Shown piece after piece: positions 5,225-55,443 of a DNA stretch of 64,000 bases. Position numbers and translations under genes: made by a program. Origin of the DNA: an uncultured Planctomycetota bacterium (GTDB lineage Bacteria; Planctomycetota; Planctomycetia; Isosphaerales; Isosphaeraceae); assembly GCA_963845755.1 (NCBI GenBank), contig CAWJTV010000001.1, forward strand, positions 128,001 through 192,000. Direction: 5' to 3'. Positions within the stretch are counted from its first letter, which is position 1, and each line of letters begins with the position of its first letter. The notes under the pieces are model-generated. The model did not search any database, was not told the DNA's origin, and worked only from the letters and a program-made list of their open reading frames with translations.

Positions 5225-6445
5225 GTGCTCTGTCACAGCTTAATTTTGGGGTAGATCGACTTCAATTTGGAGCGGGCATCGTCGATCTTCATCTGCCAAT
5301 CCACTCCGCGCTGGGTGCTGTTGACGTCGGTTGACCAAGCGGTGGTCTCCACTCGCAGCGCCTGGGCATCACCGAAGCGGCGGCCGGCTATACACTGCCG
5401 CGTCAACGAGCTGAGCTCGTTCTCGGCGATGTTCAGCCAACTGCCGTGCTTGGGGATGTAGCAGAACTCGATGCGGCGGACCAACTGGCGAGCACGGGGC
5501 GGTGCAAAGACTTCGTAGAAGGCACCCTTGGTGTGCGTGTTCAAGTTGTCGCATACCACGATCACTCGCTCGGCACTGGCATAACGGCCCTCCAACAGCG
5601 CGGCCATCTCGATCGCCCAGTCAACCTTGGTCTTGGTATCCCGGACGGCCACCTCGCGCCAGCCCGCCAGCGGCTCGGTGAACATAAAGATGTTCGCCGT
5701 CCCGGCACGCTCGTATTCGTAGTCAACGCGCTTGGCGTGTCGGCGCGTGGCAGGGATCGGCACGCGGGACTCCTTCAGCAATTGCACCGGCTGTTCGTCC
5801 ATGGACAGGATCGGCCGCATCGAGTCGTAAGGCTTGGCGTAGGTCTCCAGCACCTCTTCCATGTGGGCCACGAACTCACCGTCAGCCTCGGGCGGGATGA
5901 CCCAGTACTCGATCTTGCGGTTGGTCATCCCGTTTTTTTCAGAGTCCGCCGCACCGTCTCGTAACTGACGGTTTCGACGATCCCCAGTTCCACCACCTTT
6001 CGAGCTAAGAGCCGCAGCGTCCAGTTGGCATAACCCGGGGGCGGTGACCCGAGCCGTGTGGCGATGATCTTCGCCTCCTGTTCGCCGTTGAGTAGCTTCT
6101 CGACCGGCGGCATCTGGCGCCTGCTGCGGTCCAATGCCTCTCGAAAGCCGTACTCCACGAGACGCTGACGAATGTTCTCGACGGTCTGCGTTCGGCATCC
6201 GAACGCCTCGGCGATGCGACGATCGGTCCAGTTCGGACCGTCCGCATCGGCCTTGAACAGGATCTGGGCGCGTCGAACCTTCTCGCTGGTTCCCTTCAAC
6301 TTCTTGATCACGGCCGCCAACTCGTCCCGTTCCTCAGCCGTAAGCCGGACAATGTACTTCTTGTTCATGGGGGCCTCCTTGTTCCCCGTATCATCCACGG
6401 TCGCGGAGGTTTCCCCAACCCCAATTTTTAGCTGTGACAAAGCAC
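5225..6445 (-). mobile_element. IS630-family insertion sequence
   Basis: Imperfect terminal inverted repeats GTGCTCTGTCACAGCTTAATTTTGGGG vs reverse complement GTGCTTTGTCACAGCTAAAAATTGGGG; TA duplicated at 5223-5224 and 6446-6447 within a CTAG target. Confidence 0.92.
5233..6368 (-). CDS. IS630 transposase, two ORFs joined by -1 frameshift at an A7 run (5933-5939)
   Basis: ORF1 MNKKYIVRLTAEER...(HTH)...RRTLKK; ORF2 SMDEQP, VCDNLNTH, PKHGSWLNIAENE (DDE motifs). Confidence 0.9.
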
Positions 6446-7466: not shown

Positions 7467-10400
7467 ATGTCTCGGCTTCGCATCACCCAATCGGATGGGG
7501 CCAACGACTCATACCGCGTCGATCTGGAATTCGAGGTGGAAAAGAAGCCTCGCCAGACGGCCACGGCCACGTTCGCGTTCGGAATCTCCGAGTCGGATCA
7601 GGAGGACCTACGCTGGTACCTGGAAGACTTCCTCCAGTTCCCCCAGGATCCTGCCCCGACGATCGCGGCTCGCGTCGAGCGGCGGATGGGCGAGATCGGC
7701 AAGGACCTGTTCACCAAGGTCTTCCACTCCAGCGACGACGCGCACGACCTCTGGGCCAAGCTGCGAGAGAAGCTCGATGACACCCACGTCGAGGTCGTCA
7801 CCTCGGTCGAAGGCGCGACGGCGATTCCCTGGGATCTGATCCGCGATCCCAAGACCGACACTCCGCTGGCCCTCCGCGCCTCGGCGTTCGTCCGTGCCCA
7901 CCCTCAAGCCGCCCAGCAGCCCCAGGGCCCAAGACGAAGTCCGGGCCGATCCGCATCCTCCTGGTGATCTGCCGGCCTCGTGCCGGGGACGACGTACCGT
8001 TTCGTTCCGTAGCCAGTCGGTTGATCAAGGGGCTGAGCGAGCCGACCCAGGCGACCTACCAGCTCGACGTCCTGCGCCGCCCACCTTCGATCAACTGGGC
8101 CGCGTGCTCCGCCGGGCCAAGGCGGAGAGGAAGCCCTACCACGTCGTCCACTTCGATGGCCACGGGATCTATGCCGATTTGACCGTCGCGGGCCATGTGG
8201 CCCAGATCCTCCAGAAACTCTTCCCCGTCATCTTCTCGGCGCCGCGTACCGGCCAGCACGGCTTTCTCCTTTTCGAGAACCCCCAGATCCAGGAAAACCT
8301 TGCGCCCATCGATGGCACCAGGCTCGGAAACCTGCTGGTTGAGACCGATGTGTCTGTGCTCGTTCTCAACGCCTGCCGCAGTGCCCACGCCGAGGTCGAA
8401 GACGAGTCCGAGCCCACCAACCGGCGAGCCGCCGACGAACCTCAGCGCGGCCCAGGCGGCCGACGATCTTCATGAGCGGGTGCGGACCTTCGGCACACTG
8501 GCCCAGGAGGTCATGGAAGCCGGCGTGGCGGGCGTGGTGGCAATGCGTTACAACGTCTACGTCGTCACGGCCGCCCAGTTCGTCGCCGACCTCTACGCCG
8601 AACTCGTCCGCGGCCGGACGCTCGGCGCCGCGGTCACGATGGGCCGCAAGCAACTGCATGACAACCCCAACCGCAGCATTGCCTACGACCCACTCCCCTT
8701 GCAGGACTGGTGCGTACCGGTCGTCTACGAGTCTACGCCGATCCGGCTCTTTCCCGTCCAGAAGAAGGCCGATGGCCTGACGATCACGATCCAGGCCGGC
8801 GACACGGCCTCTCGCCGCGGTGCGCTCGACAGCGAGCTACCCCGCCCGCCCGATGCGGGCTTCTTCGGCCGCGACGAGACGCTGCTGGCCCTCGACCGGG
8901 CCTTCGACACGCAACAGGTCGTGCTCCTGCACGCCTATGCCGGCAGCGGCAAGACCACCACCGCGGCCGAGTTCGCCCGCTGGTATTCCTTGACCGGCGG
9001 CATCACCGGCCCGGTCCTCTTCACCTCGTTCGAGCAGTACAAACCGCTGCCCCGGGTGCTCGACCGGATTGGCGATGTCTTCGGTCGGATGCTCGAACAA
9101 GCGGGAGTTCACTGGCTGGCCCTCGATGAAGCCGATCGGCGTAAGGTGGCGCTGGATGTCCTGAATCGGATCTCGGTCCTCTGGATCTGGGACAACGTCG
9201 AGCCGATCGCCGGCTTTCCAAAGGGGACGCCCTCGACCTGGAGCGACCTGGAACAGAAGGAGCTGGCCGACTTCCTTCGCGATGCCCGCTCGACCCAGGC
9301 CCGGTTCCTGCTCACCAGCCGCCGCGACGAGCACGATTGGCTGGGCGACCTGCCGCGAAGAATCGCGGTCCCGGCGATGCCCATGCAGGAGCGGGTGCAA
9401 CTGGCCCGCGCCCTTGCGGAGAAGCGCGGCCGCCGGATCACCGACGTGGAAGACTGGAGGCCGCTGCTGCGATTCACCGAAGGCAACCCGCTCACCATCA
9501 CCGTGCTCGTCGGCCAGGCCTTGCGCGATGGCCTGAAGACGAAAGTGCAGATCGGGGAGTTCGTGACGGAGTTGAAGGCAGGTACCGCGAAATTCGACGA
9601 CGAGGCGAGCGAAGGCCGCACCCGATCGCTCGGCGCGTCGCTCAGCTACGGTTTCAACCACGCCTTCAGCGAAGCCGAGCGCAAGCAACTGGCCCTGTTG
9701 CACTTCTTCCAGGGCTTCGTCGACGTGGACGCGTTGAGGATGATGGGCGACCCCAAGGCCGACTGGTGCCTGCCCGAAGTGCGTGGCCTGACGCGAGAAG
9801 CCGGCATCGCCCTGCTCGATCGCGCCGCCGAAGTCGGCCTGCTCACCGCGCTCGGGGGCGGCAATTACACCATCCACCCGGCCGTGCCCTGGTTCTTCAA
9901 GACCCTGTTCGACGCCTACTATGCCGGTCCCCCGACTGATTCGGCCGACGATCGTGGCGGCGAAGAGAACTCCCAGGCCGGCCGCGCCATGCGGGCCTTC
10001 GTGCGGGCGATGGGTGAACTGGGGAATTACTACTCGGCAGGAATACGTCAGCGGCAATAGCGACGTGATCGCCGCTTTGTCCGCCGATGAGGCCAATTTA
10101 CTGTACGCTCGGCGCCTGGCCCGTCAGAACGGCTGGTCGGATCCGGTCGCCAGCACGATGCAGGGCTTGAGGCTCCTATACCAGCACAGGGGCCGCAGGG
10201 TGGAATGGAAGAGCCTGGTCGATGAGATCGTACCCGACTTTGTGGACCCGGCCACGGACGGACCACGACCAGGCCGCGAGTCCGCCTGGAGCCTCGTCAC
10301 GCAATATCGCGTGCATCTCGCTCGGGAGGCACGAGAGTGGGCGAACGCCGAGCGGCTGCAACGAGTCTGTGTGGAATGGGATCGTCAGTCTGCCGAGCAC

Positions 10401-11285
10401 TTCATCGACACGTACCAGGGTCGGACGGATCCTCCATCGTCAGCGATGAAGCCCAGCCACCCGGATCCGAACGACCACCAACAACTTCGGTCAAACGGCC
10501 GCCCTTCCGGGACCGCCTCGCGGCGGTCCTGCCAGGCCTGTCCCCTACCGACCGAAATCTCATCCGCTCCCTGGCGGTCTCGCTGCACGAACTGGGCGAA
10601 ATCCAGCGCGAACGTGGGGAACCGGCGTGTATCGCCTCTTACCAGGAATCGCTCGACCTGGCCGAGGAGATGGGTGAGCGTGCCGGTGCTGCAATTTGTG
10701 CCTTCAACCTGGGCACGGCCCACAAGGACATCCCCGCCATCCGCGACCTGGACCGGGCCGAAAATTGGTATCGGCGCAGCCTGGAACTTTATGACGAGCG
10801 TGACCGGCTCCGTCGAGGAAGATCGCAGGGTCAACTGGGTGGCGTGGCGCTCGAACGATTCTGGGAGGCCAGGAACGCTGGCGAGGCGGCGGCCACGCTG
10901 CTCGCTCACCTCAACGCCGCGCGCGGCCTATCAGCAGGCCCTCGCGTTGATCCCCGAGGATGCCGTGAATGATCGGGGGGTCGCTCACGGCCAGCTCGGC
11001 TCGATCTACGGGGGAGCCGGTGATATCGACCGCGCCCTACCGCATTACCGCGAAGCCATCCGTTACAGGGAATTGGCAGGCGACAGTTACGGCGCCGCAC
11101 AAACCATCCGCTACAACGTCGCGCTGCACCTGGCCCAATCCGGCCGCTTCGTGGACGCCCGGGAATACGCCCGCGCCGCCCTGAATGGCTTCTCCTCCTA
11201 TGGATCCGCCGCGGCAGATTGGGTTCAAAAAACGCAAGAATTGCTCAAATGGATTGACGAGGCTATTGCCAGGAAGAAGGGATAG
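7467..11285 (+). CDS. CHAT (caspase-like) protease - STAND/NB-ARC-like NTPase - TPR protein, ~1270 aa, ~6 frameshifts
   Basis: IPWDLI, HVVHFDGHG and VLNACRS (His/Cys dyad), GVVAMRY, FFGRD, Walker A YAGSGKTT, Walker B WIWDNVE, LTSR, GNPL, then TPR repeats (HGQLGSIY, FNLGTAH). Confidence 0.85.
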
Positions 11286-11381
11286 GTCGAATTCACCAAA
11301 GCGCCGCCGAGCCGAACAGAATGTCTGGCGACGTCATCAGAACCAGAACCGTTCACCCCCCTATCGAGAGACGAGATCCCC

Positions 11382-11777
11382 ATGAACCGCAACGAATTCG
11401 CCGCAATGATCGCCGCCGAGCCGAACCTCTCGGGACCGATCGAACGGGCCGGGCAGGCCGCGCGGCCGGGGCACTACACCGTGGTGGCCGAGGCGGCCGT
11501 CATTGCGCTGATGTTCCCGATCGTCCGGTACATCATCGTCCAGATCGGCCTGCCCTGGCTCCATGAGCTGAAGCGTTACAGCGAACTCCAGCGTCAGAAG
11601 GTCCATCAGTGGATCGACGAGCGATCGCGCGCCGAGGGCCTCGACCCCGACGCCGCCGAGGCCGCCAGCGACGCCCTCTGCCGGGAACTCGAACAGACCA
11701 CCAGCGCCTCGGCCCGCGCCTCCTGGCAGCGCCTGGCCGAGCTCTTGAAGGCCGGGAAGGACGAAGACAACGCCTGA
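11382..11777 (+). CDS. Small hypothetical protein with one hydrophobic helix
   Basis: Intact 131 aa ORF with GC-rich codon usage; VVAEAAVIALMFPIVRYIIVQIGLPWL followed by a charged helical tail. Confidence 0.75.
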   Translation: MNRNEFAAMIAAEPNLSGPIERAGQAARPGHYTVVAEAAVIALMFPIVRYIIVQIGLPWLHELKRYSELQRQKVHQWIDERSRAEGLDPDAAEAASDALCRELEQTTSASARASWQRLAELLKAGKDEDNA

Positions 11778-11957
11778 ACGTCATCTCCTAGTGAACCCGC
11801 CGAACGATCGCCTTGGGTCGCAACCCATAAGAGATCGCCACTGGGTAACATCAAGGTGAGGCAACACGCCTCTAACGACTTGGCGTATAGCTGAGGTGGG
11901 TCGTGTTTCCTTTTCTCCTCGGAGCTTCGCAATCTCTCAGATCCGTCAGGAGGGATC

Positions 11958-12398
11958 TCAGCGATTGGATTCTCTCGGCGGCCACCAACCAACCTGTACC
12001 CATAGCGAGCGAGCCGCCACGAGCTCTGGCCGGTTCAGTTGAAGGGTGACGACGGTGGCGCGACCGCGCGGCGTCAAGCCGATGATCTCCGTACCGTCCT
12101 CACTCCAGGAAAAATGATCGGGCCATTTCTGTCGCCGCGGGTTCCACAACCGGACGCGCTTGCCCGTGGCGGGATCTCGCCCCTGGATGCGATCGCCCTT
12201 GAACTCGTTGCATGCATGGCAGGCCAGCCATAGGTTCTTTTCAACCGTCTGGCCGCCTCTGGCTTCGGGAATGATATGCTCGATGGTCAGGCGAAACCCC
12301 GCAATGCTCTCAGGCGTCCGGCAATAACCACAGCGATTGCCGGCGATCCTGGCCACGCGCTCGCGCAGTCGGCGCGGCACACGGGCCTTGCCGGCCAT
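11958..12398 (-). CDS. HNH endonuclease
   Basis: RCGYC, IEHIIPEARGG, NLWLACHACNEFKG, LWNPR, GRATVVTLQLN. Confidence 0.9.
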   Translation of the reverse strand: MAGKARVPRRLRERVARIAGNRCGYCRTPESIAGFRLTIEHIIPEARGGQTVEKNLWLACHACNEFKGDRIQGRDPATGKRVRLWNPRRQKWPDHFSWSEDGTEIIGLTPRGRATVVTLQLNRPELVAARSLWVQVGWWPPRESNR

Positions 12399-12400
12399 GG

Positions 12401-12811
12401 CTAGAGATCCCCGATGGTCGGGACGCTATGCCCGCGGTACTTCAGCAACAAGGTCGCGTAGGACCGCCGGAGCATCAGACAGTCCCCATCCGCGCGCAGC
12501 TCGCCCAATGCGTGTTTCTCCCGGTCCGTCAACTCGCCTCGCTGGTTCTTATCAAGAAGGCGTTCCAAACGCTGCTGCTTGACCGGAGCGGGACGACTTC
12601 GCGCGATTTTCCACAATTCGTCATCGCCGAGATCTTCCATGGCCTCGAGTTGGGCTCGATATTCGGCCGGCACTTTCTCCAACGACGGTGTCGCGGCCCG
12701 GACGATGTTCACCAGCGCCTTCTCTACGGATTGGTTCATCCCCTTGGCGGCGCGGCGGACCCGCTCATAGACGTCGTCGGGCAACTCCAGGGTGAGCATG
12801 GGGTGGCTCAT
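12401..12811 (-). CDS. Putative antitoxin (ribbon-helix-helix-like N-terminus) upstream of the HNH gene
   Basis: LTLELPDDVYERVRRAA; LLDKNQRGELT; LLLKYRGH; ends 2 nt before the HNH start. Confidence 0.75.
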   Translation of the reverse strand: MSHPMLTLELPDDVYERVRRAAKGMNQSVEKALVNIVRAATPSLEKVPAEYRAQLEAMEDLGDDELWKIARSRPAPVKQQRLERLLDKNQRGELTDREKHALGELRADGDCLMLRRSYATLLLKYRGHSVPTIGDL

Positions 12812-13259
12812 GATCGATTCCTTTCCACCGTTACGGGATGCTCAATGGGCCTACGAACCTTCGGTGCCGGTGGTTCCGCCTTTCGAGGTTATCGGGGTAG
12901 CCGGTCCTGATCAAGCCAGGTATGAGCTGCTCCCATTCGCTGGCCCAGTCATGATGGAATCCTCCCTCTACTCCGCGATCGCCTCCATTCGGTCAAGCGA
13001 AACGATCTCGCGGCCCATCACTCCGAGCAAAGCCACGATTCGTTTCGGTTCCGCAAGAGGGAGGAAGTTGAGGCCCACCGATTGTGGCTTGCCGGAAAAA
13101 ACCTGGCCATCGACCTAATCGGAAGCTAAGAAACCACTTATCGAAACCCCCGATTCCACGGAGGCCGTCTGGACACTCCATGGCAACACGTGTATACTAC
13201 CAATTCCTCCCCGTTTCGTTGGTAGCAGTTCCACAAAGGGAGATGAGGACCAACCAGGG

Positions 13260-19874
<6,615 letters not shown>

Positions 19875-19962: not shown

Positions 19963-21422
19963 GGAACGCCGACGAAATAACATCCCCATTTCAGGGTGCC
20001 AAACTGCTGTTCGCCATGAGAACCTAGGTAAGATAGGAAGATCCAGGCTGTTCCTGGGGCGCGACCCGTCTGCCTCCCCGCGATGTCGGTTTTCGGAGGG
20101 CCCTTCTGGTCCCGGGGGGCGTGCGGTGGTATAGCGAGGATTGTTCCGTATCTGGGTCTTTAGCCGGAGGCCAATCATGTCGCCTTATTCCCCGGACGTC
20201 GAGCGGACCATGAGAGCATTCTACCATTCCTTGCGCGAGAATGATCGGCGACGGTATGCGGCGGTCGAGGCGGCCAAGTTGGGTCACGGCGGGGTCGAGT
20301 ACATCGCCAAGGTCTTGGGCGTCGATCCCAAGACCATTCGTCACGGCCAGCGCGACCTCGAGGATCTCCCCGCCGAACCCGCTCCGCAGGTCCGCCAGCC
20401 CGGCGGGGGGCGGAGACGGCGGCTCGATCAAGACCCCGAGATCACCAACAACTTCCACAAGGTCCTCCTCGATCGCACCGCCGGCAGCCCAACCGCGGAG
20501 TCCCTGATCTGGACCAACTTGACCAAGATCGAAATCGCAGGTGGCATGCGAGAGTGTGGAAGCTTTGTCAGTGTGCATATCGTCAGCCAACTGCTCGATC
20601 AGGAAGGTTTCCATGAACGCAAAGCCCTGCGCATGGAACCGCTGAGCCGCCACCCCGAGCGAGACCACCAATTCCAGACGATCGGCCGGCTCAAGGGGGA
20701 ATACCTCGACTCCCCCCACCCGGTCCTGAGCATGGACCTGAAATCCCGAGAACGGCTCGGCAACTTCTTCCGCGCCGGCACGCTCCAGACGCGACAGACG
20801 ATCCGGGTGTTCGACCACGACTTCGACGAGTTCGCCGAGGGATTCGTGTTGCCCCACGGGATCTACGACCTCAAGCAGAATCGCGGATACATCCACCTAG
20901 GCACGAGTCATGATACCAGCGAATTCGCATGCGACTGCGTCAAGGACTGGTGGGACCGATTCGGCAACGCGGTCTACCTGCAGGCGACGTCGCTGCTGCT
21001 GCTCTGCGATGGCGGCGGGAGCAACCCGGCGGACAACGACCGCTACCAGCAGCACTTGTTCCGGGCCGACTTGCAACGCCTGGCCAACGACCTGGAGTTG
21101 GAGATCCGGGTGGCGCACTATCCGCCGTACGCCTCGAAGTTCAACCCGATCGAACATCGCCTGTTCCCCCACCTGACGCGGGTCTGCAAGGGCGTCATCC
21201 TGCACAACATCGACTGGGTCGCCGAACTGATGAGGAAAGCCACGACGCGGACGGGCCTGACGGTTCAAGTCAACATCCTGGACAAGGTCTATCAACTCGG
21301 CCGAAAGGTCAGCGAAACCGCCAAGGATGCCGTGAAGCTGCTCCGGGACGCCATCCTGCCACGCTGGAACTACCGCATTTTACCCAATGTGTGAAGTCGG
21401 GAAGTTATTTCGTCGGTGTTCC
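19963..21422 (+). mobile_element. ISAzo13-family insertion sequence
   Basis: 18 bp terminal inverted repeats GGAACGCCGACGAAATAA / TTATTTCGTCGGTGTTCC (1 mismatch) flanking the transposase. Confidence 0.9.
20177..21394 (+). CDS. ISAzo13-family transposase
   Basis: RRRYAAVEAAKLGHGG, SMDLKSRE, DHDF, SHDTSEFA, CDGGGSN, HYPPYASKFNPIEHRLF, WNY. Confidence 0.92.
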   Translation: MSPYSPDVERTMRAFYHSLRENDRRRYAAVEAAKLGHGGVEYIAKVLGVDPKTIRHGQRDLEDLPAEPAPQVRQPGGGRRRRLDQDPEITNNFHKVLLDRTAGSPTAESLIWTNLTKIEIAGGMRECGSFVSVHIVSQLLDQEGFHERKALRMEPLSRHPERDHQFQTIGRLKGEYLDSPHPVLSMDLKSRERLGNFFRAGTLQTRQTIRVFDHDFDEFAEGFVLPHGIYDLKQNRGYIHLGTSHDTSEFACDCVKDWWDRFGNAVYLQATSLLLLCDGGGSNPADNDRYQQHLFRADLQRLANDLELEIRVAHYPPYASKFNPIEHRLFPHLTRVCKGVILHNIDWVAELMRKATTRTGLTVQVNILDKVYQLGRKVSETAKDAVKLLRDAILPRWNYRILPNV

Positions 21423-43595: not shown

Positions 43596-44700
43596 TTACC
43601 ACTTGTCGATCGCGCCCGAGGGCACCGGGATCTCGGCGTCGTAATGGCTGGGCAGCGGCGAATCGGGGCCTTCCATTCGGGCAATCGCGACGACCTCGTC
43701 GAAGAGCGCCGGGCTGGAGAGGTTGAGCAACTGGCGGTAGAGCGGGCGGGGCATGCGCGTGAAGTGGAAATACCACTTGAGGATCTTGCGGAATTGCAGG
43801 CAGCCGAACCGCTCGCCGCGGCGGGTGACCAGTCCGTGGAAGTGCTCGCACATGAGGTCAACCCGTTCCTCGTAGGATGGATCCACCCCGGGGTGGCCGG
43901 TGCGGCTCCAGCAGTCGAGCTGCCGGAAGAAGAAGGGATTGGCCAGGGCCCCTCGTCCGATCGAGACGGCTGCACAGCCGGTCTCGACGAACGTCCGCGC
44001 CGCGTCGGCGATCGTCCGGATATCGCCGTTGGCGATGACCGGGATCCGGTCAACGGCCTCGACCACCGCACGGATCCCCGCGATTGACCGAGCCCTTGAA
44101 ACCTTGCTGCCGGGTCCGGCCGTGGATGATCACGCCCGCCACGCCGGCCTGCTCGAAGGCGCGGGCCAGGCCGGGCGCTGTCAGCGATTCGTCATCCCAG
44201 CCCAGGCGCATCTTCACCGTCACCGGGATCTGGACGGCTCTCACGACCGCGCCGACCAGGTCCACGGCGCGATCCATCTCGCACATCAAGGCCGAGCCGC
44301 CGCCCCCCTTGACCACCTTACGTACGGGGCAGCCCATGTTGATATCGACGGCCGTAACTCCTTGCGCTTCCACCCATCGGGCCGCTGGGGCCATCTCGGC
44401 CGCGATGGCCCCGTAGATCTGGATCGACAGCGGACGATCTGCGTCGCAGGTCTCGGACAGCTCGAGTGCGCGGCGGCGACCCTCGATCAGCGACCGGGCG
44501 TTGACCAGGTCCGTCGTCGCCAGGCCCAGGCCCCCGCATCCGCGCACGGCCAGCCGGAACGCCAGGCTCGTGTAACCGGCCAGCGGGGCCAGGAAGAAGC
44601 GAGAAGCGATCCGCCGTTGGCCCAGATGGAACGGCTCGCGCACAATGGGGGGAACCTCGGGTATCCGGCATTCGCGGTGTTCTGACAAGATCATCTCCAT
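43596..44700 (-). CDS. dusB: tRNA-dihydrouridine synthase, DusB/NifR3 family (frameshift ~44070; start uncertain)
   Basis: FLAPLAGYT, DINMGCPV, TVKMRLGWD, HGRTRQQ, IANGDI, IGRGALANP. Confidence 0.88.
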
Positions 44701-44715
44701 CCTGATTGGGTTCGC

Positions 44716-45944
44716 ATGCAACGACGCTCTCATTCTAGCCCTGAACCCACCGAGCTACGAGTCCAGTACGATTCGGCCGTCGACGAAGAGTTCTGGGTGC
44801 TGACGACCGACGCGGGGCGCCGGTTGCTCGACGAGGTCGCATCCGTCCGAGCGATTGGCCCGGCGGACGTGTCTCGGTTCCGAAAACGGGCCGCGCCTGG
44901 GGTTGTGGCCGCCGCTGTCCGATTGTCGATCGCGCAGAAGAAGGCGGTCGCGAAGTTCGAGCGCGGGCGCGGATGTGGGTCGAGGCGACCGGTCTCGAGC
45001 AGGCGACCGCCGAGCCGGTCGCCCGGCACAAGGCCAGGCGGTTCGAGTCGGGTACGCTCGTCGTGGATCTCTGCGCGGGGATCGGTGGCGATGCAATCGC
45101 GCCGGCTGCGCGATCGCAGGTTTTGACGGTGGATCTCGATCCCGGGATGTGCCGGCGGATCGGCTGGAACGCCGCGGTCTACGATGTCGGTGATCGGGTC
45201 CTTGCGGTGCAGGCCCGGGCGGAAACCTTCACGATCCCTCGAGGGGCATGGGTCCATCTCGACCCGGACCGCCGGGCTGGCCGCAATCGCCGCGCCCGTG
45301 CGCTCGAGGATTACGCGCCTGGCCGCTCGGCGTGGGAGTCGATCGTCCGAAGGGTCCCTGGCGGGGCGATCAAGCTCAGCCCGGCCAGCGACTTCGCGAG
45401 GCACTTACCCGGACCTGGGTATGAAATCGAGCTGATCAGTCTCCGCGGCGAGTGCAAGGAGGCAACCGTCTGGTTCGGCGAGTTGGCCGGTTGCCGGCGG
45501 CGGGCGACTCGGCTACCCGAGGGCGTCACCTGGACTGACCGCGACATCGGGAGGCCCGGTCCCGTTCCGATCTCTCCGCTCTCGAATTGGATCTACGATC
45601 CCGACCCCGCACTTATCCGCGCCGGGCTGGTCGATGGGTACGCCCGGGCACACGGGCTCTGCCGTGTTGCCGGCGGGGTCGACTACCTGACCGCGGCCGT
45701 CCTCGTCGCAACGCCGTTCTTGAGCGCTTTCACCGTGCGCGACGTTGCGCCGATGGACCTGAAGCATTTGCGTCGGATGATCGAACGGCACCGCGTCGGG
45801 ACTCTGGAGATCAAGGTCCGCGGGGCGGACGTCGCGCCGGAAGCCCTCCGCTCGCAGTTGAGGCCCCGCGGCGCCGAGTCGGCCACGCTGCTGATTGTTG
45901 GTGGGACCGGCCCCGCACGCGCCGTGCTGGCTCAAAGAGGATAG
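44716..45944 (+). CDS. SAM-dependent methyltransferase with THUMP-like C-terminal domain (frameshift ~44970; start uncertain)
   Basis: LEQATAEPVARHKA, DLCAGIGGD, HLDPDRR, IKLSP, YDPDPALIRAGL, LEIKVRG. Confidence 0.85.
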
Positions 45945-48854: not shown

Positions 48855-51800
48855 TCAAAGTCTCTCGATCGAGGGATCGCCCAGCTCGTCCATCGCCGAG
48901 GTGTGATACTCGACCAGCGGGGCCTCGGGAGATCCGTTGCCATCGGCGGCCGCCCCGTTGCCGTCGCTCATCCCTTCATCCCCAACCGGGACCGGCTCGA
49001 CGGGCGCCACCCGCGCACCATTGCCAATGGGCGGGACGGGGCCCTCGGGGCGCGGTCGGACGGCGAACTTCTGCTTCACCTCGTTGAGCCATTCCGCCTC
49101 GGGCAGGCCGTAGGGGCGGAACTTCTCGATCCGGTTCTCTTCCTCGCTGTAATAGAGGGCCCGGTTCTCGCCCAGCTTGCTGGCCGCGGGGGCGTCGATC
49201 ATCGTGCTCGAGTCGTTGGAGCTCATCTGGAACAGGATGCGGTTCTCGAATTCCTTCATCCCCTGACGATCGAGGGTCCGGTTCAGGTTGTTGACGCTGT
49301 CGCACCAGACCATCGTGTGGATGCCCAACGGCGGGCCGTCGCGGAGGATGTCGCCGAAGAGCTTCGAAGGCGGCATGGGCTTGTCCTCGTCGTATCGCGA
49401 GAACCCGAAATCATCGTCCGACTTGCGGAGGTCGCGGAACCGCTGGATGTCGTAGATGAAGATGAAGATCGGGACCTGGTCCTCGGTGGCCTCGGTCTGA
49501 CGCCGGCCGATCTCCGCGGCGAGATCGGTGAAGGTCGAGCCCAGGTCGCGCCAGGTGACGTTCTTGATCGAGTGCGGGACGATCTCCGCGAGGTTGCCGA
49601 GCTTGCCGTGGAGCCAGGAATCGACGGGACTGCCGTCGAGGAGGTAGAAGCGGCACGCCCGGCGGCTGGTCGGCGGGTGCTGGGCGGAGATGCTCAGGAT
49701 CGACATCATCATCATCGCCAGTGCCGCCTCGTCGTTCTGGCCGACGATCAGGACGTTGCTGCCGCTCTGCGGGCGGAAGACGATGCAGGTGGGGTCCTTG
49801 ATGGCGATCGCGTCGCCCAGCCAGGCCGTGTTGACCTTGGCGGGCTCGGCCGGCCACTCGGTCGCCTCGAGCAAGGGGATTCAGGAGCGGGTTCTTGCTC
49901 ACGTCGGCCGGCAGGTTCCCCTCGAAGACGATCGGCGGCGGCTTCTGGATGTTGCGGTCCTTCGCCATCTTCTTCATGAGCTCCAGGTACGCCTCGCGCT
50001 TATCATCCGAGAGCCAGACGACCTGGAAGAGGTTGTTCCCCTCCATCATGCCGTTGGCGTCGTTGTAGATGGCCTCGCCGGGCCGGGTCAGCAGGCGGGC
50101 CGCGGTGTTGTCCTCGCTCAGGATCAGGTGGGCGTCGGCCTCGCTGCATTGCAGGGCGATGCGTACGGCCATCTGTCCCAGCGTGGCCCTGGGCAGCGAG
50201 TACGAGCCGCCCAGGGTCTGCGAACCCAGCATGACGTGCATGCCGAAGGCACGACCTTGCCGGACCAGCCGGTCCATCAGCAGAGAGACTTCCTGAGCAA
50301 TCTTGTCATCCTCGACGAAGAACTCCTGGAACTCGTCGATGACCAGGAGGATGCGCGGCATGGGCACGTCGGGCCGGGCTTCGCGGAAGCCGGCCACGTC
50401 CTGACAGCCCACCTCCCGGTAGATTTCGCCGCGTTCCTTCATCTCGACGTCCAGCCGCTGGAGCACGCTCAGGCCGAACTCGCGCTCGCTCTCCACCGCG
50501 ATGACCCGGGCGTGGGGCAGCGCCATCGCGGCATAGACCTTGAACTCGACGCCTTTCTTGAAGTCGATCAGGTAGAGCTCGAGCTGGTTGGGATCGTAGC
50601 GGAGTGCGCCGTTGGTGATCATCGCGTGCAGCATGGTCGACTTGCCCGAGCCCGTCTTGCCGGAGGTCAGGGCGTGCTGCGAGGTCCCCTTGCCCAGGAT
50701 GAAGTGCTGGAGCTTGGTGGCCCCGGCGCGGCCCAGCGGGATGTCGATGATCTTGGCGCTGTTGAACGTCCAGAACTGGTCGGGCTTCGGCGCGATGAAC
50801 TCGAACGGGACCTCGACGCGATTGGCGTCGCGGGCCGCGGCTCCGACCTTGTGGAGGATCTGCGAGAACCGGGCCTGGTCGGGGGGGGCGTCCAGGGCCA
50901 GCGGGTACCGGCCGAGGTTCGGCTCGCGCCAGTTGAGTTTGTTGTCCTTCCAGATCATGTTGACGCAGTGGTTCTCGATGTCCTTCAACTGGAAGCCCGA
51001 GGGGAGCTGGAGCTTCGTGTCCAGGAGGATCAGCGCATACACGCCGCACCGCGCCCCGCTGCTGACGATGCTGACCAGCCGTCGGATCGCGTTGTCGTTG
51101 AAGTTCGTCGGGAAGTTGGCGACGACCACCACGCGGAACGGCTCGGCGACCTCACCGGCCATCGTGTTGTATTCCTCGATCGTCTCGAACTCATTGCGCA
51201 GGTACTTCTGAATGACGTTCTCCATGTGCTCGGTCAGGTCGGTCAGCCGCTGCTCGATGTGAGGGGCCTCGGTCCAGATGCGGTTGGTCACCAGCAGCTC
51301 GTGATAGTCGCCCAGGTGCATGAAGGCGGCGAAATTCTCGCCCAGTCCGACCGGGTCGATGATGGTGAAGCGGACCTTGCCGGCCGGGATCGAGGTCAGA
51401 TAACGGAGCATCAGGGCCTGGAGCAAGGGGACGGCCTGGTCCTTGCCGCCGTCGGCCGCACGGATGAGCATCGAGCCGTGGATGGGGAACGGCAGGAGGG
51501 CGGGCAGGTCCCAGTGGGTCGGCACCGACTTGAGCCGAGGATCGCGCGGCACGCCGTTGGGAAACTGGTTCAGATCGACCGAGAAGAGGCCGAACTGGAG
51601 GCCCGGTGGGACCTCGGTCGGTGGCTTCCAGCCGTCGAGCTCCGGCCGGTTCCACTCCAGGAATCGACGCTCGGCTTCCTCGTTGACCCCACGCAGCGAC
51701 TCGTCGACCTTCGCCATGCCGGTGGTCCAGTTCTGGATCAGGTTCTGCCAGGCCTGGTCATAGGCCAGCTTGGTGGTCTCCTTGAGCTTGCGCTGCGACT

Positions 51801-53037
51801 CGTCGAGCTCCTGCTTGTCCTGGGCGTACTTCTTCTTGATGGCCTCGACGAGGGGCGGGTACTTCGCGTTGACCTTCTTGAGGTCCTCGTCGCGCTTCTG
51901 GCGGATCTGTTCGGCCTTGGCGGGGAACTTCTCGTCGGCGGCCTTGCGCTGGTCCTCGCGGCGCTGCTGGGCCTCGCCCACCAGCCGATTCATGGTCTCC
52001 TCGGCCTCGCGGACCCGGTTGGTCCGCCGATCCTCGAACTCCTTGATCTTCGCCTCGTACTCCTTCTTGACCCAATCCTGGTTCTGCTCGACGAGCTGCT
52101 CGGCCTCCTCGAGGCTCTTCCGGAGCGGGACGGCGTGGCGCTGCACGCGCGGTTTGGCCATCGAAGCCAGGCCGAGATAGGCCCCCACGCCGGCTCCGAT
52201 CGCGGCGATACCCCCCGCAATGCCGGCTCCGGTCCAGCCGATCGCCGTCTGGGTGCCCAGCGCGGCGGCAATGCCGCCGCCCAGGAGCAGGAATGGCCAG
52301 ACAAAGGTCTGGGGTTGCAGGAACTTGGGGAGCTTGAGCGCGTCGAGGGCCGCCAGGTCATCCACCATCCGGATCAGGTCGAGCCGGAGCCGCGAGAGAG
52401 GATCATCGCCGGTGGGGAGTTCCGGCGCTTCGGTCGGAGCGTCTCCGTCAGTCGTCGCCTCGCTCTCCGGCGGAGGGGCCACGACCGGCTCGGCCGCGCG
52501 GGCCGCCAGGATCGCCTCCGCCTCCTCGGGAGTGGCCAGCGACAGCCGGCCGCACCGCTTGAGCAGGTATTTCGCCTCTTCCTGACGGACATGCAGCTCC
52601 TCGATCGCGACCGACCAGTTGGCCTCGGTCGCACGCCGCCACTTGGTCCCCTCGTCGCGCGTCCCCTCGAAGACCGTCAGCGCGTGCCAGCCGGTCTCCT
52701 CCTTGGCCTTCTTGGCCTTGCGCTGCTCCTTCTTGAACTGGTCGTCGATCTGCTGCTTGGTCTGCGCGTACTGGGCATCACACGCCTGGGCATCGCGCTG
52801 GTACGTCTGGAGGGCCGATTGGCGCGCCCGGGCATACTCGGACTCCATGCTCTCGAGGTCAACCTTGAACTTGGAGGCAAGCTGATGAGAAGCCGCCTGG
52901 CACTCCTTCTCTTCCCGGTCGATCCGGCGGCGGAACCCGGTCTCGGTGTCCGTCTCGTCCTTGGCCCGGGCCGCGATCAACGCTTCCAGGTCGTTCAGCG
53001 AGGTTGTCTCGATTTGGACAAGTGGCGACTCAGGCAT
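48855..53037 (-). CDS. FtsK/SpoIIIE-family, EccC/EssC-like ATPase with coiled coils, TM hairpin and three ATPase-like domains (frameshift ~49880)
   Basis: HALTSGKTGSGKS, LIDFKKGVEF, LVIDEFQEF, RQGRAFGMH; degenerate flanking domains (IIDPVGLG; DGPPLGIH). Confidence 0.9.
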
Positions 53038-53225
53038 GGTGCGTGGTCCTGGTGTTGTCGTGAGCGGCGAGTCGCGAGTCGTGGCAACGGACAAGTAAGA
53101 CGATGCCTCACGTCCCGAGGAACGTCGATCGGGCCTGTTGGGTGGGATCGTGAGACCCGCATTCAACGTGACCGGCCGGTCCTGGATGGTTTCAGATTCG
53201 CCCTTCGCCATTCACCGATACGATG

Positions 53226-53438
53226 TCAATCTTCCTTACACTGAGCACGGATCTTCCCCAGGGTTTCCGAGAGCTTTTCCATGCCAATCATCGCATGCTT
53301 GGCGTGCTGCTCGAGGGGAATGATGTGGTTCTTTTCGAAATCACGCGCGTTGGCGTCGGCCCAGGTCTCCTTGGCGATGTCCCACTGTTCGCGCAAGTGT
53401 TTGAGGGCATGTTGCAGCCGTCCCGACTGAGCGCTCAT
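53226..53438 (-). CDS. Small WXG100-like helical protein
   Basis: 70 aa; LREQWDIAKETWADANARDFE, helix-turn-helix pattern with central W-x-D. Confidence 0.75.
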   Translation of the reverse strand: MSAQSGRLQHALKHLREQWDIAKETWADANARDFEKNHIIPLEQHAKHAMIGMEKLSETLGKIRAQCKED

Positions 53439-53590
53439 TTTCGTAGTCCTTAGGTCCGTGTGTCCTTGAGAAGATCGCGGATGCCGTCCTTCCGGTTCCC
53501 GGTCGTCGGCAAGTACCTGAGCAGCCCGCGGATGCCACCTGGCGTCACTCGCGGACGGACCGACTCAAGGATTCGAGTTGGCCGGCTGGG

Positions 53591-54215
53591 TTACCGCTCC
53601 CGGAGTCGTTGCCGTTGCGGCTTCATCGTTCTGCTGGCCGTCGGTCGAGTCGGCCGTGGCCGTGGCAGCCGCGCTGCCCGCGGCCGTCGGCGCCGTGGAG
53701 GTCGTGCCGGCCGGCTCGTTCCGGGCGCCGTGGGTACGGCCGTCGCCAGGTAGGCTTCCAACGACCGGGTCATCTTCTCCAGCGCGGCCACCGAGCGATC
53801 AAAGCCGCCAGCGAGGTGGTCGCCCAGCGGTTGGGAGTGGGAATGATACTCGGCGATCGCGTGGTGAAGCATCGGGATCAGCTTCTTCACCAGCGCCACC
53901 TTCTCCTCGGCCACCCGGAGACGCCGCTGCGCCTCGCGCAGCGCCTCCTTCTGGTCGGCGTCGGAGACCGCCTCGCTCCCCTGCTGCGAGATCTTGCGGC
54001 GGTGCAGATCCGCTCGCGCCTGCATCAACTCCTCCTGCCGGCGTTTGATCTGCGCCTGCCAGTAGCCGAGCTGGTCCCGCTCGAGCCAGTCGCGCATCCG
54101 CCGCAGTTCCATGTCCACGCCACTAAGCGAGTTGCGCATCTTCCGCGAAGATGATCATCGCGTTCTTGAAGTCTTTGAGCGTCTGGACAGACAACACATT
54201 GGCAGTTCGGCTCAT
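53591..54215 (-). CDS. Coiled-coil protein of the WXG100 operon (frameshift ~54140; 3' end uncertain)
   Basis: MSRTANVLSVQTLKDFKNAMIIFAED + RNSLSGVDMELRRMRDWLERDQLGYWQAQIKRR...LEAYLA. Confidence 0.75.
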
Positions 54216-54217
54216 GC

Positions 54218-54399
54218 TTCTTTGTCCTTGGGTCCTGGAGCCCTTGAGTCCTGGAGTCTTCGAGTTCCTGTCCCTTGCCGTGATTGGCCACGCCATCGCC
54301 TGATGGCTTCATCGTGACCGCCGTCGCCGGCATGTCCCGACTCGCAGGCGATCCGAGCCGACAAGGGACCGAGGACTCGAGGACCCAAGGAATTAAGAA
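54218..54399. repeat. Inverted repeat built from 8-mer units (GGACTCGA/GGACCCAA)
   Basis: TCCTTGGGTCCT pairs with AGGACCCAAGGA, and GTCCCTTG with CAAGGGAC. Confidence 0.6.
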
Positions 54400-54402
54400 C
54401 AT

Positions 54403-54675
54403 TTACCGCTGTTGCAGGTACTCCTCGATGCGTTCCGCCTTGCGGAGCAAGAACGGGATGTGCTGATTGGTCGAGTCGACGAACCGCTTGACCACCTGGA
54501 GGGTCTGCTCGAATTCCTCGACGAACTTGTCGTGCTCTCGGTCGCGCCAGGACTGGCTCAGGCCGCTGAGCTGACCGTGCAACGTGGTCAACTGGGTCAT
54601 CATTTCATTGTTGAACTGCTTGAGCCGGGCGGCGAATCGGCGGAGTTCTTCCGGGTTGACGATGGCTTGAGCCAT
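54403..54675 (-). CDS. WXG100 (ESAT-6/EsxA-like) protein
   Basis: 90 aa MAQAIVNPEELRRFAARLKQF...LSQSWRDREHDKFVEEF...LRKAERIEEYL; RBS GAGG. Confidence 0.88.
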   Translation of the reverse strand: MAQAIVNPEELRRFAARLKQFNNEMMTQLTTLHGQLSGLSQSWRDREHDKFVEEFEQTLQVVKRFVDSTNQHIPFLLRKAERIEEYLQQR

Positions 54676-55443
54676 TTCGTGCCTCACTTCCGCGACGGGA
54701 ACGGGTGAATTCCACGCGACGCCGCCGCGCCGGCAGTCTGCTGCGACGACCGCATTCCACGCGATGCAACGTCGTGACTTGTTTCTCTCGATGGTATTCG
54801 CCGCGACGCTGGCTGTAAAGTCGCGCGTCTCCTGAACAGCGCCGTACCCCCATTCCGCGAGCCCCCTCCTTGACTCCCCTTCCCGCCGCCGTGACGCCGT
54901 GACGACATCCGAGTCCGACTGCGATCTCGACCCGACCAAGAATCGGCGTTTTCCCATGTCACCTGCGGCAAGGTTAGCGCCTTGCCGGCACTTATCGCTC
55001 GCCCCATCCGATGCTTACAATCAAGCTGTATCGTATGCCGATAGGCTTAGGATTGCGATTTTGATGTCTTTTTAGTCCAGATCAGAGACATTCCACGGCG
55101 CTCTCTTGATGATTTGAAGAACGATTGCCCCCGTGTGCTGCCCCAAGAAAATCGTACGTTGTTTTTAGTGAACGCCACCAGGGATTTGGGGCAGGAAGAG
55201 GTAGCTTTTGCCTTGGAGATCCGGTAAACCATAGAACTCAGGTTTCGCACTGGTCTGGGCCGAGGGACGAGTTGCGCGATTCGCGACGAGCATCGATTTT
55301 CTGAAACGAGGCTGCCTTTTGGTTGCGTTTTCGAATGGATACGGCCGCTCGATCGCGGTAGGAGCCCATGTCCCATGACCATCCGAGCGCGGGACTTTGA
55401 GAATCCTTCAAGTTCACGTTTTGAGAAGAAGGAGTATTGCAGC

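Follow-up and report, generated by a model that had tools for sequence, protein, structure and literature searches.

The gene pair at the locus

Within the window, by which we mean the whole 64,000-nt stretch of DNA that was analysed, two neighbouring genes share the forward strand. The first (7467..11285), delineated from ORF pieces, Pfam matches, tblastn and DNA alignment, starts with an ATG at 7467 and stops with a TAG at 11283-11285; read through the frame breaks described below, it comprises ~1263 codons in seven frame segments and encodes a CHAT-STAND NTPase-TPR protein. After a spacer of 96 bp (11286..11381), conserved at 96-97 nt in the related loci L009 and L014, a co-oriented, intact ORF extends from the ATG at 11382 to the TGA at 11777 (11382..11777), at the place given in the preliminary description. 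It encodes a partner protein of 131 aa that is predicted to be all-helical and belongs to an unnamed family, defined here by homologues, alignment, AlphaFold2 modelling and HMM search. On the reverse strand, a DDE_3 transposase gene (5233..6198; PF13358, E 1.8e-18) lies upstream and outside the module, and a convergent HNH endonuclease gene (11958..12398; Pfam HNH_5 and HNH) forms the downstream context. This HNH gene matches PADLOC PtuB-type HNH models down to E 5e-12 and is not conserved beside the module at other loci. A promoter and terminator scan returned nothing useful.

The architecture initially read from the large gene, a CHAT protease followed by STAND and TPR regions, was borne out, with all of the named motifs located and the CHAT and TPR_12 matches above their Pfam cut-offs. 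The CHAT protease domain covers approximately 7851..8721 of the forward strand, as projected from residues 129-418 of the L009 protein, and contains the His motif HFDGHG (8149-8166), either of whose two histidines may be the catalytic one, and the Cys motif LNAC (8365-8376). The Pfam model PF12770 matched CHAT as two pieces in the window (24.5 and 26.6 bits, cut-off 24) and scored 57.8 and 74.3 bits on the intact homologues from L009 and L011, and residues H229, F230, G232, G234, N302 and C304 are invariant among 62 homologues. The STAND P-loop NTPase module (8861..9700, forward strand, outer bounds approximate), placed by its motifs and by AAA_16 scores, carries Walker A (GSGKT, 8942-8956), Walker B (IWDNVE, 9185-9202) and GNPL (9482-9493), and these motifs are conserved among homologues. 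The AAA_16 match is sub-threshold, since its score of 29.0 bits in the window, and of up to 31.7 in homologues, is below the cut-off of 32.6. The C-terminal helical/TPR sensor region (10000..11282, forward strand, start approximate) matches TPR_12 (31.5 bits, cut-off 30.1) together with TPR_2, TPR_1 and TPR_MalT. Walker A, Walker B and GNPL following CHAT, and then TPR repeats, make up a STAND/NLR-like layout, and the CHAT-STAND-TPR family is highly conserved, with 55% mean identity across phyla.

Frame breaks in the large gene

As assembled, the large gene is not one open frame. Mapping by a MAFFT DNA alignment against L009, L014 and L011, combined with the frame changes of tblastn HSPs, revealed six frame-breaking indel sites within 7925..10921 of the forward strand: ~7925 (-1), 8075 (-1), 8421-8448 (-4, -2, +1), 10036 (+1), 10431 (-1) and 10921 (-2). 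Because of these six indels, a full-length protease protein is not encodable from the sequence as assembled, and in this form the copy in the present genome is unusable. Intact relatives have 1274 aa and are 71-87% identical to it; when the breaks are filled with X, the translated read-through shares 87% identity with one intact relative (P0122) and has zero in-frame stops.

Sequencing error and very recent decay appear roughly balanced as causes of these breaks, and we give an even chance to the view that all six are long-read consensus errors of the assembly and that the organism's gene is intact and working. All six are small indels that can be read through without an in-frame stop, the catalytic and NTPase motifs are all undamaged, and the window differs at 7 of the 396 columns invariant in nine relatives, while intact relatives of similar depth differ at 8-15. 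The assembly (49 contigs, completeness 87.9%) presents the essential rpoB as two overlapping frames and splits dus within the window, so that assembly error and decay are hard to separate. Decay is favoured by the density of the breaks, six in 3.8 kb as against zero in the 18.5 kb of six long unbroken frames in the same window, and by the four aminoacyl-tRNA synthetase genes, which have zero breaks where rpoB has one. In addition, the adjacent UvrA-like gene is broken too, once through an in-frame stop, transposase genes stand on either side of the stretch, and five CHAT paralogues of the same genome are split inside the domain. Related loci elsewhere have decayed via mobile-element insertion, deletion and IS200, which base-calling errors cannot explain.

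The 131-aa protein represents a rare family

The 131-aa ORF is far beyond chance and belongs to a real, rare family. Its homologues at E ≤ 1e-3 number 113 and have a mean column identity of 53%, residues P46, P58, W59, R71, L103 and W115 are invariant, and an HMM search returned 103 representatives in 1.84 billion. The codon-position GC of the ORF (0.67/0.48/0.83) is typical for genes here. It is extremely improbable that the ORF arose by chance or is a neighbour without relation to the large gene, given these homologues, the gene-like GC pattern and a linkage to CHAT-STAND genes (see below) that holds over 29-87% protein identity and altered gene order; the sole point in favour of a chance ORF is that no database has a name for it. 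Pfam gave 0 families at threshold for the window's small protein, the NCBIfam scan gave zero matches for the protein or the pair, PADLOC gave none for the protein, and an hmmsearch of the family against PDB sequences gave 0 matches at E ≤ 10. A literature search outside subscription journals and supplements found no published description of the family. Unnamed actinobacterial clusters came nearest in the ESM Atlas, at a value of 0.88 that is below the meaningful level. The Pfam family HTH_67 matches weakly at residues ~57-121 in 15 of 90 members (10 of the 50 listed singly), with scores that stay at 16-22 bits where the cut-off is 27; we keep this match only as a weak lead for a regulatory role. 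The possibility that the small protein is an internal copy of part of the CHAT protein was rejected (hhalign probability 0.25).

AlphaFold2, run with 90 sequences, predicted a compact seven-helix bundle (pLDDT 86.8, pTM 0.82) that contains one hydrophobic helix with a proline kink (residues 37-55). A low-confidence, indel-rich loop (residues 26-36 in the model and the alignment) stands just ahead of this helix, and a GLPW motif follows it directly. In 86 of 105 relatives, the 19-mer preceding GLPW reaches a mean Kyte-Doolittle (KD) value of 1.6 or more; the family median for the hydrophobic segment is 1.81, and a hand calculation from the translation gave a 19-residue mean of 1.98 for the window's protein. 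Thus, of the three-part layout originally suggested (a short N-terminal segment, a hydrophobic helix and a charged tail), the hydrophobic stretch stands, and the layout itself gives way to the predicted bundle, inside which the helix would be packed in a soluble protein. Distant members are less hydrophobic (of 49 new representatives, 29 have a KD of at least 1.6 and 20 a lower one, with a minimum of 0.42), and the helix has two to three polar residues in every case, with one conserved basic residue; both observations speak against an effector role. A Foldseek search of the model against the PDB gave zero matches at E ≤ 1e-3. Its weak top rows (globins, phycocyanins and Bak) had raised a colicin/Bcl-2-like fold, which was dropped as the score was too low, and the best Z of 5.7 from a wide VIA-align comparison is at the noise level for helical bundles.

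Linkage of the small gene with protease genes

The proposal that homologues of the 131-aa protein consistently sit beside CHAT or other protease genes found support in three kinds of evidence: gene neighbourhood, co-occurrence and gene fusion. Flanks were visible for 16 distinct loci with a small-gene match, and at 10 of these a CHAT-STAND gene lies on the same strand, adjacent or within 4 kb (the window, L009, L011, L014, L016, L018, L013, L008, L019 and L017). The small gene is the 3' gene at nine of the ten. The pairs at L009 (proteins of 1274 aa and 143 aa) and L011 are intact. At L008, 3.6 kb of mobile-element genes are inserted between the two genes, at L019 the CHAT-STAND gene is present as remnants, and at L017 the gene order is reversed and the CHAT-STAND protein is 29% identical (hhalign probability 97%). 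Elsewhere, L012 and L021 retain a remnant of the 3' end of the CHAT gene only, and in genome G447 the pair is located at two contig ends. A close CHAT homologue and a full-length small gene occur in the identical 4 of the 121 genomes of the order. The sequences of eleven presumed pairs co-vary, with a Mantel r of 0.83 that was reached in 1 of 5000 permutations. The pairing of the small protein with the protease gene is therefore conserved. The complete genome G344 encodes an intact 1224-aa CHAT-STAND-TPR homologue and lacks a small-family gene genome-wide, indicating that the protease family can do without the partner. The small gene is intact in the window, at L008 and at L012, where the protease gene is broken or lost; this survival is at best neutral evidence, given that the protease gene presents a tenfold larger target.

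Natural fusions that join the small domain to S8 subtilases reinforce the protease linkage. In four of them (P0256, P0334, P0336 and P0272), a Peptidase_S8 domain is fused to the small domain with the junction exactly at its Met1, and P0256 represents a cluster of three found on 6, 12 and 5 contigs. In this S8 family, the small domain occupies the position that a non-catalytic PPC domain has in relatives. In one further case (P0293), the small domain is fused ahead of a DUF900 alpha/beta hydrolase. The fusion to DUF900, a hydrolase that is itself effector-like, and the replacement of PPC in S8 fit an accessory or regulatory module equally well. The AlphaFold2 model of P0256 (pLDDT 87.3) has a flexible linker at 441-460 and shows the hydrophobic segment as a single 23-residue helix (H493-515); it is silent on cis-cleavage, because inter-domain confidence was not part of the output.

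Defence databases were consulted for the pair, which had been put forward as a candidate defence system, and here the result was negative: none of the PADLOC, NCBIfam and Pfam models recognises it as a pair. In PADLOC-DB 2.0.0, which is dated 2023 and precedes later families, the large gene matches neither Avs, bNACHT nor any other named family, and gives only mad8 (E 0.0015) and SAVED_CHAT (E 5e-5 to 8e-4) over short stretches. None of the 19 ORFs flanking L009, L011, L014 and L017 matched PADLOC at E ≤ 1e-5, and no defence-island context was seen around the related loci examined.

A proposed mechanism and its alternatives

The small protein is probably what CHAT-type proteases cut or control. 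With middling confidence, we propose that it works as a partner coupled to the protease. Most likely it would be a latent effector that cleavage licenses, in analogy to EACC1 but outside that family. In such a system, the CHAT protease of the NLR-like protein would be restrained by the STAND ATPase switch and the C-terminal TPR sensor. By analogy with STAND and Avs proteins, ligand binding would lead to oligomerisation and render the protease active. The helical protein of ~130 residues would be dedicated to such proteases and, most likely, would be the protease's own substrate. Its proline-kinked hydrophobic helix (37-55) would be masked in the seven-helix bundle until the protease cut at a cleavage site in the small protein, perhaps in the low-confidence loop (26-36) or in the conserved segment GLPWLxELKRYSE, and the freed helix would then act, probably on a membrane, as a toxic product in a putative anti-phage response. 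The logic would resemble that of EACC1, Pepco and bacterial gasdermins, with an unrelated fold. When residues 1-460 with the CHAT region (alignment of 62 rows) were co-folded with the partner (alignment of 90 rows), in a run without controls, the score was 0.00, which counts neither for nor against the proposal; published pairs reached ipTM values of 0.77-0.91 only when protease oligomers were modelled.

A rather unlikely competitor would make the small protein a regulatory or adaptor subunit, namely a CHAT/S8 inhibitor, a substrate-docking module or a co-sensor, with the output produced by the protease through its own cuts in proteins of the host or of phage. The CHAT-STAND-TPR protein occurs without the partner in at least one complete genome, and caspase-like defence proteases without a dedicated effector are reported (bioRxiv 10.1101/2025.11.14.688446). 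The predicted fold is compact and soluble-looking, the small gene outlasts the protease gene at several decayed loci, and both the PPC replacement and the position ahead of a separate, effector-like hydrolase in P0293 would suit a subunit of this kind. However, most members have a strongly hydrophobic helix (86 of 105 and 29 of 49), binding to the protease is itself putative, and Pfam, Foldseek, VIA and PDB hmmsearch revealed no likeness to any known protease inhibitor or propeptide. Improbable, in our view, is a role as a single-pass membrane protein, which would serve to anchor or localise the protease complex or to sense a membrane signal. The KD values of the window's protein and of the family median, and the single 23-residue helix in the S8 fusion model, would agree with such a role, but the segment has conserved polar and basic residues and is non-hydrophobic in distant members, AlphaFold2 places it in the bundle, the protein has neither a signal peptide nor a second TM segment, and its N-terminal 35 residues form two conserved helices.

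Comparison with known systems

The closest parallel to the proposed latent effector is the EACC1-caspase pair, in which the gene of a small (~115-130 aa), non-enzymatic protein that has a single hydrophobic helix likewise lies beside that of a caspase-superfamily protease fused to STAND or other sensors (PMC7159879), and the pair is kept while its surroundings vary (PMC7159879; bioRxiv 10.1101/2025.11.14.688446). EACC1 was first proposed to be a single-pass membrane anchor or localiser, or a sensor of membrane signals; it is now reported to be cut by its protease, with a C-terminal fragment that forms pores (Evans et al. 2025, bioRxiv 10.1101/2025.11.14.688446). As described, EACC1 is an alpha+beta protein whose TM helix has a glycine patch and whose gene is the 5' one (Kaur et al. 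2020, eLife, PMC7159879), whereas the small protein is predicted to be all-alpha, its helix combines a proline kink with polar residues and lacks a glycine patch, and its gene is the 3' one at nine of ten linked loci. In a Pfam search of 90 members at E ≤ 10, EACC1 (PF19953) was not among the best 25 of 42 families, and at most one member could match it, because it is absent from the 25 most-matched families. In the ESM Atlas, EACC1 and the small protein reached only 0.76.

Small effectors licensed by neighbouring caspase-like, trypsin-like and subtilisin-like proteases have been described (bioRxiv 10.1101/2025.11.14.688446). Bacterial gasdermins, Pepco (Trypco), MBL nucleases and alpha/beta-hydrolases share with our pair, as outlined in that work, the caspase-like or S8 subtilisin-like partner proteases and the placement of a latent protein beside a sensor-fused protease (Evans et al. 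2025), whereas the small protein, known here from genes and models, showed no fold or sequence likeness to any solved structure in the Foldseek, VIA and PDB hmmsearch comparisons. Caspase-like N-termini are reported to occur in bacterial Apaf-1-like proteins (Nature 2026, PMC13581612). The tripartite arrangement of effector, STAND NTPase and repeat sensor is that of Avs and bacterial NLR-like STAND proteins, as reported (PMC13581612), but the large gene has no PADLOC Avs match, and the related loci that were examined showed no surrounding defence islands. The proposed effector would also have a counterpart in two systems in which a CHAT or other protease is paired with an adjacently encoded small regulatory target, as outlined in the corresponding abstracts. 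In Craspase, the type III-E TPR-CHAT protein Csx29 cuts Csx30, and CalpL-CalpT is likewise a protease with its target. Unlike these, the conserved neighbourhood here contains no CRISPR, sigma-factor or anti-sigma gene, and the sensor consists of a STAND NTPase and TPRs within the same polypeptide.

Implications

Bacterial immunity and cell suicide are increasingly seen to rely, as one of their main designs, on sensor-fused proteases that unleash a latent neighbour, in parallel to caspase-gasdermin signalling. The partner families named so far number only about ten, and four of these were not characterised until 2025. More tentatively than the effector role itself, and as a claim that we would sooner doubt than accept, the small protein may found an eleventh class of protease-licensed death effector: an all-helical pro-toxin with a masked helix freed by cleavage, shared interchangeably by CHAT and S8 sensor proteases and, in some cases, fused with these proteases or with a lipase-like hydrolase. 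If true, the list would gain a partner family whose all-helical fold is unrelated to the others and which is linked to two protease classes, and the small protein would be tractable for asking how cleavage turns a soluble bundle active. Since the partner is optional in a conserved CHAT-STAND-TPR family, proteases that depend on an effector may be compared, within one natural family, with proteases that do not.

Domain organization of the CHAT-STAND-TPR protein

Judged from its translations, the larger of the two genes (7467-11285, + strand) encodes a protein with CHAT, STAND NTPase and TPR regions. Its motifs are HFDGHG (8149-8166), LNAC (8365-8376), Walker A GSGKT (8942-8956), Walker B IWDNVE (9185-9202) and GNPL (9482-9493), all on the + strand. 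Pfam matched TPR_12 at 31.5 bits (cut-off 30.1) and CHAT as two separate pieces, at 24.5 and 26.6 bits against a cut-off of 24, while AAA_16 reached 29 bits, slightly below its cut-off of 32.6. The stop codon (TAG, 11283-11285) is followed by a 96-bp spacer and then, on the same strand, by a small ORF of 131 codons running from ATG to TGA (11382-11777). The translations and Pfam matches thus confirm the motifs and the co-oriented 131-aa ORF of the preliminary description. The predicted protease is caspase-like with an intact-looking dyad, and the same chain carries a switch of the NLR type and a TPR sensor.

A rare family of small helical proteins

The small protein had no match in Pfam, NCBIfam or PADLOC. 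A word-indexed search returned 113 homologues at E ≤ 1e-3, mostly of 125-135 aa, and when 1.84 billion representatives were searched exhaustively with a profile, 103 reached E ≤ 1e-3, 79 of them E ≤ 1e-10. The few named records among the homologues are Planctomycetota, and one family member comes from Candidatus Poribacteria. Across 90 aligned members the mean column identity is 53%, with P46, P58, W59, R71, L103 and W115 invariant. In the main text of openly available papers, we found no published description of this family, which is a real, rare and unnamed one. Residues ~57-121 show a sub-threshold likeness to positions 183-245 of Pfam HTH_67 in 15 of the 90 members (16-22 bits; cut-off 27).

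AlphaFold2, run with the 90-member alignment, confidently predicted a compact bundle made up of helices 3-12, 14-25, 37-43, 45-55, 68-85, 89-105 and 109-130, seven in all (pLDDT 86.8, pTM 0.82), the sole weak stretch being the indel-rich loop 26-36. No convincing structural likeness to this model was found among solved structures. The hydrophobic helix of the preliminary description was retained in part: the segment before GLPW has TM-like mean hydropathy (≥1.6) in most members (86 of the 105 close relatives, 29 of the 49 that are more distant), but it is packed in the modeled bundle, always carries two or three polar residues, among them a basic one that is conserved, and has no hydrophobic character left in the most distant members. 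We read it as a helix that, in the resting state, is probably buried wholly or by half in a soluble domain, rather than a plain membrane anchor.

Linkage of the small gene with the CHAT-STAND gene

That homologues of the small protein sit beside protease genes was borne out: at 10 of 16 distinct loci with visible flanks, a CHAT-STAND gene on the same strand adjoins the small gene or lies less than 4 kb away. The gap is 96-97 nt in the window and at two related loci (L009, L014) and 14-38 nt at L016 and L018, whose contigs both begin within the CHAT gene, and the two genes abut at L011. At L013 a gap of 1.26 kb separates a degraded CHAT gene from a small gene without its first 30 codons; at L008 a serine recombinase gene and MULE and ISL3 transposase genes sit between the pair; and at L019 both genes are remnants. 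The order is reversed at L017, where the small gene is directly followed by that of a 1237-aa CHAT-STAND protein (29% identity to the family, hhalign probability 97%, across the CHAT and NTPase regions). At L012 and L021 the CHAT gene beside the small gene is reduced to its final 25-85 codons, and in genome G447 the CHAT gene stops ~60 nt from the end of one contig while the small gene begins 22 nt from the end of another. The visible flanks lack a CHAT gene at three of the 16 loci: L015, with an IS200-type transposase upstream of the small gene; L020, a truncated match on a 1.35-kb contig; and G446, of the same genus, which holds only a 229-nt small-gene remnant.

Among 121 genomes of the order, a full-length small gene occurs in four, the window's genome (G000), G433, G447 and G471, and a close CHAT homologue in exactly the same four. 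A CHAT remnant of 132 aa is present in G431 and a 40% CHAT paralogue in G449, both without the small gene, and the family was not found among 400 other genomes sampled evenly across the phylum. Eleven presumed small/CHAT pairs, of which two were seen directly (L009, L014), one is the two-contig case of G447 and eight were paired solely by contigs of equal length, co-vary with a Mantel r of 0.83, reached by 1 of 5000 permutations; since kinship alone can yield this, it shows co-inheritance, not interaction. The small helical protein is a dedicated, co-inherited partner of the CHAT-STAND protease.

The protease family extends beyond the partner. More than 1813 proteins match the first 460 residues of the L009 protein; the 120 matches listed are of ~1200-1300 aa, are 57-81% identical and come from Planctomycetota, Chloroflexota, KSB1, Hydrogenedentes, Verrucomicrobiota and Gammaproteobacteria. 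Mean column identity over 62 aligned members is 55%. The complete genome G344 encodes an intact 1224-aa CHAT-STAND-TPR member with no small-family gene downstream or genome-wide; downstream of it are a convergent AAA ATPase gene, an HNH gene and an IS66 transposase gene. The partner is therefore an add-on of a subclade. Just upstream of this partner-less gene, a stretch (L026, G344:C1, ~11754-13145) has very low apparent GC and is probably N.

Fusions of the small domain to other enzymes

Among the profile-search hits, the small domain also occurs at the C-terminus of Peptidase_S8 subtilases, P0256 (590 aa; a cluster of three members, on 6, 12 and 5 contigs) and P0272 (568 aa), in which it begins exactly at the free protein's Met1 after a flexible linker. 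Two further full-length S8 fusions, P0334 and P0336, bring those covering at least 99% of the query to 3 of the 120 relatives listed; most others listed carry a PPC domain (PF04151) in its place, or nothing. In P0293 (517 aa), the small domain is N-terminal and precedes a DUF900 alpha/beta hydrolase. P0264 looks like a read-through artefact and was dropped as a fusion. The S8 fusions mean that the small domain accompanies two mechanistically unrelated protease classes, CHAT and S8; caspase-like and S8 proteases are also those that accompany gasdermins and the MBL nuclease (bioRxiv 10.1101/2025.11.14.688446).

Sources of the listed S8 relatives include cyanobacteria, Kuenenia, Methanoperedens and Desulfobacterales. 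The subtilase family keeps 47-62% identity across cyanobacteria, Kuenenia, methanotrophic archaea and Desulfobacterales, with an exchangeable C-terminal module (PPC, none or the small helical domain); such a distribution resembles that of a conflict-type gene passed on horizontally.

Frame breaks in the protease gene

Intact relatives of the large gene exist at L009 (3083-6904, 1274 aa) and L011 (one open frame, 1320 codons stop to stop). When their proteins are aligned with the window, the matching frame switches six times, at breaks placed by DNA alignment with relatives at ~7925 (-1), ~8075 (-1), 8421-8448 (-4, -2 and +1, in a variable linker), 10036 (+1), 10431 (-1) and 10921 (-2). None of the six sites has a long homopolymer in the DNA alignment. 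The read-through, with X at the breaks, spans 1263 positions with zero in-frame stops, is 87% identical to the intact protein P0122, and deviates at 7 of 396 columns invariant in nine relatives, compared with 8-15 for intact relatives of similar depth.

We give equal weight to assembly error and to real decay as the cause. Error would fit disruptions that are all indels with no excess of substitutions, catalytic and NTPase motifs that are all intact, and an assembly of 87.9% completeness in 49 contigs in which genes unbreakable in life are also broken. The essential rpoB (G000:C34:79348-83258, minus strand, outside the window) is divided between two frames that overlap, one of 692 and one of 678 codons, so one or more of the frameshifts in this assembly must stem from faulty sequencing or assembly. 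The dihydrouridine synthase gene (Dus; 43599-44754, - strand) is also split over two frames, with Pfam profile positions 2-168 at 44053-44754 and 172-284 at 43599-44129. Decay would fit the crowding of six breaks within 3.8 kb, with none in six long frames of the window (1203, 921, 1266, 1258, 838 and 687 codons; 18.5 kb) or in four aminoacyl-tRNA synthetase frames (967, 1057, 941 and 572 codons). It would likewise fit the fragmented next large gene, the transposase genes on both sides, related loci elsewhere damaged by events other than base-calling errors, and a CHAT domain split over two frames in five G000 paralogues (C9:151758-153094, C11:47214-48382, C11:1412561-1413483, C19:57904-59252 and C22:168272-169254; genome-wide, 22 CHAT-profile matches fall on at least 14 genes). 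If real, the breaks are very recent.

That next large gene encodes a very long UvrA-like double ABC ATPase (13260-19871, + strand), with UvrA_inter and UvrA_DNA-bind each present twice. The gene is broken into four or more pieces, one break being an in-frame stop (14017-14019), and its 1203-codon piece matches PADLOC mad3 (E 1.1e-88) and mad8 (7e-36); it may be a second, likewise damaged, defence-type gene of one island with the CHAT gene. DDE_3 (5233-6198, - strand) and ISAZ013-type (20135-21391, + strand) transposase genes flank the stretch with these two broken genes, suggesting an island that is mobile or varies between strains. Convergent with the small ORF is a small stand-alone HNH endonuclease gene (11958-12398, - strand) that matches PtuB-type PADLOC models (best E 5e-12), with no PtuA gene beside it. 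Elsewhere in the window (49414-55014, - strand), a 1266-codon FtsK/SpoIIIE-family ATPase near a WXG100-domain protein (54406-55014) is reminiscent of type VII secretion loci.

Proposed mechanism and relation to known systems

From work on STAND/Avs proteins, ligand binding by the TPRs would trigger ATP-dependent oligomerisation of the CHAT-STAND-TPR protein. The CHAT domains, now clustered, would then cleave the partner, with loop 26-36, ahead of the hydrophobic helix, as a possible site, and the freed fragment would act, probably on the membrane. This scheme draws on STAND/Avs, EACC1, Pepco, MBL and alpha/beta-hydrolase work (bioRxiv 10.1101/2025.11.14.688446, PMC7159879 and PMC13581612). There is an even chance that the partner is the protease's licensed substrate or effector. 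A regulator or adaptor of the protease is a less probable but serious alternative; a membrane anchor or sensor, to which the TM-like hydropathy points and the modeled soluble bundle does not, is improbable; and two genes without a functional link are very improbable given their conserved adjacency.

An anti-phage role for the pair is suggested by analogy only. No PADLOC model fits the pair that the preliminary description proposed as a candidate defence system, none of the PADLOC Avs families recognises the large gene, and at L009, L011, L014 and L017 none of the 19 flanking ORFs matches PADLOC at E ≤ 1e-5; in the window, by contrast, the pair's own neighbours include the PtuB-type HNH gene and the mad3-like ABC ATPase gene. 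In its working mode, proposed here by analogy, the pair resembles that of EACC1, a protease-licensed effector, with its caspase. The small protein is not a member of EACC1, differing from it in having no profile match, another secondary structure, no glycine patch and the opposite gene order. CATASP is another small caspase-associated protein, named in bioRxiv 10.1101/2025.11.14.688446. The broken protease gene lowers the interest of the G000 copy.
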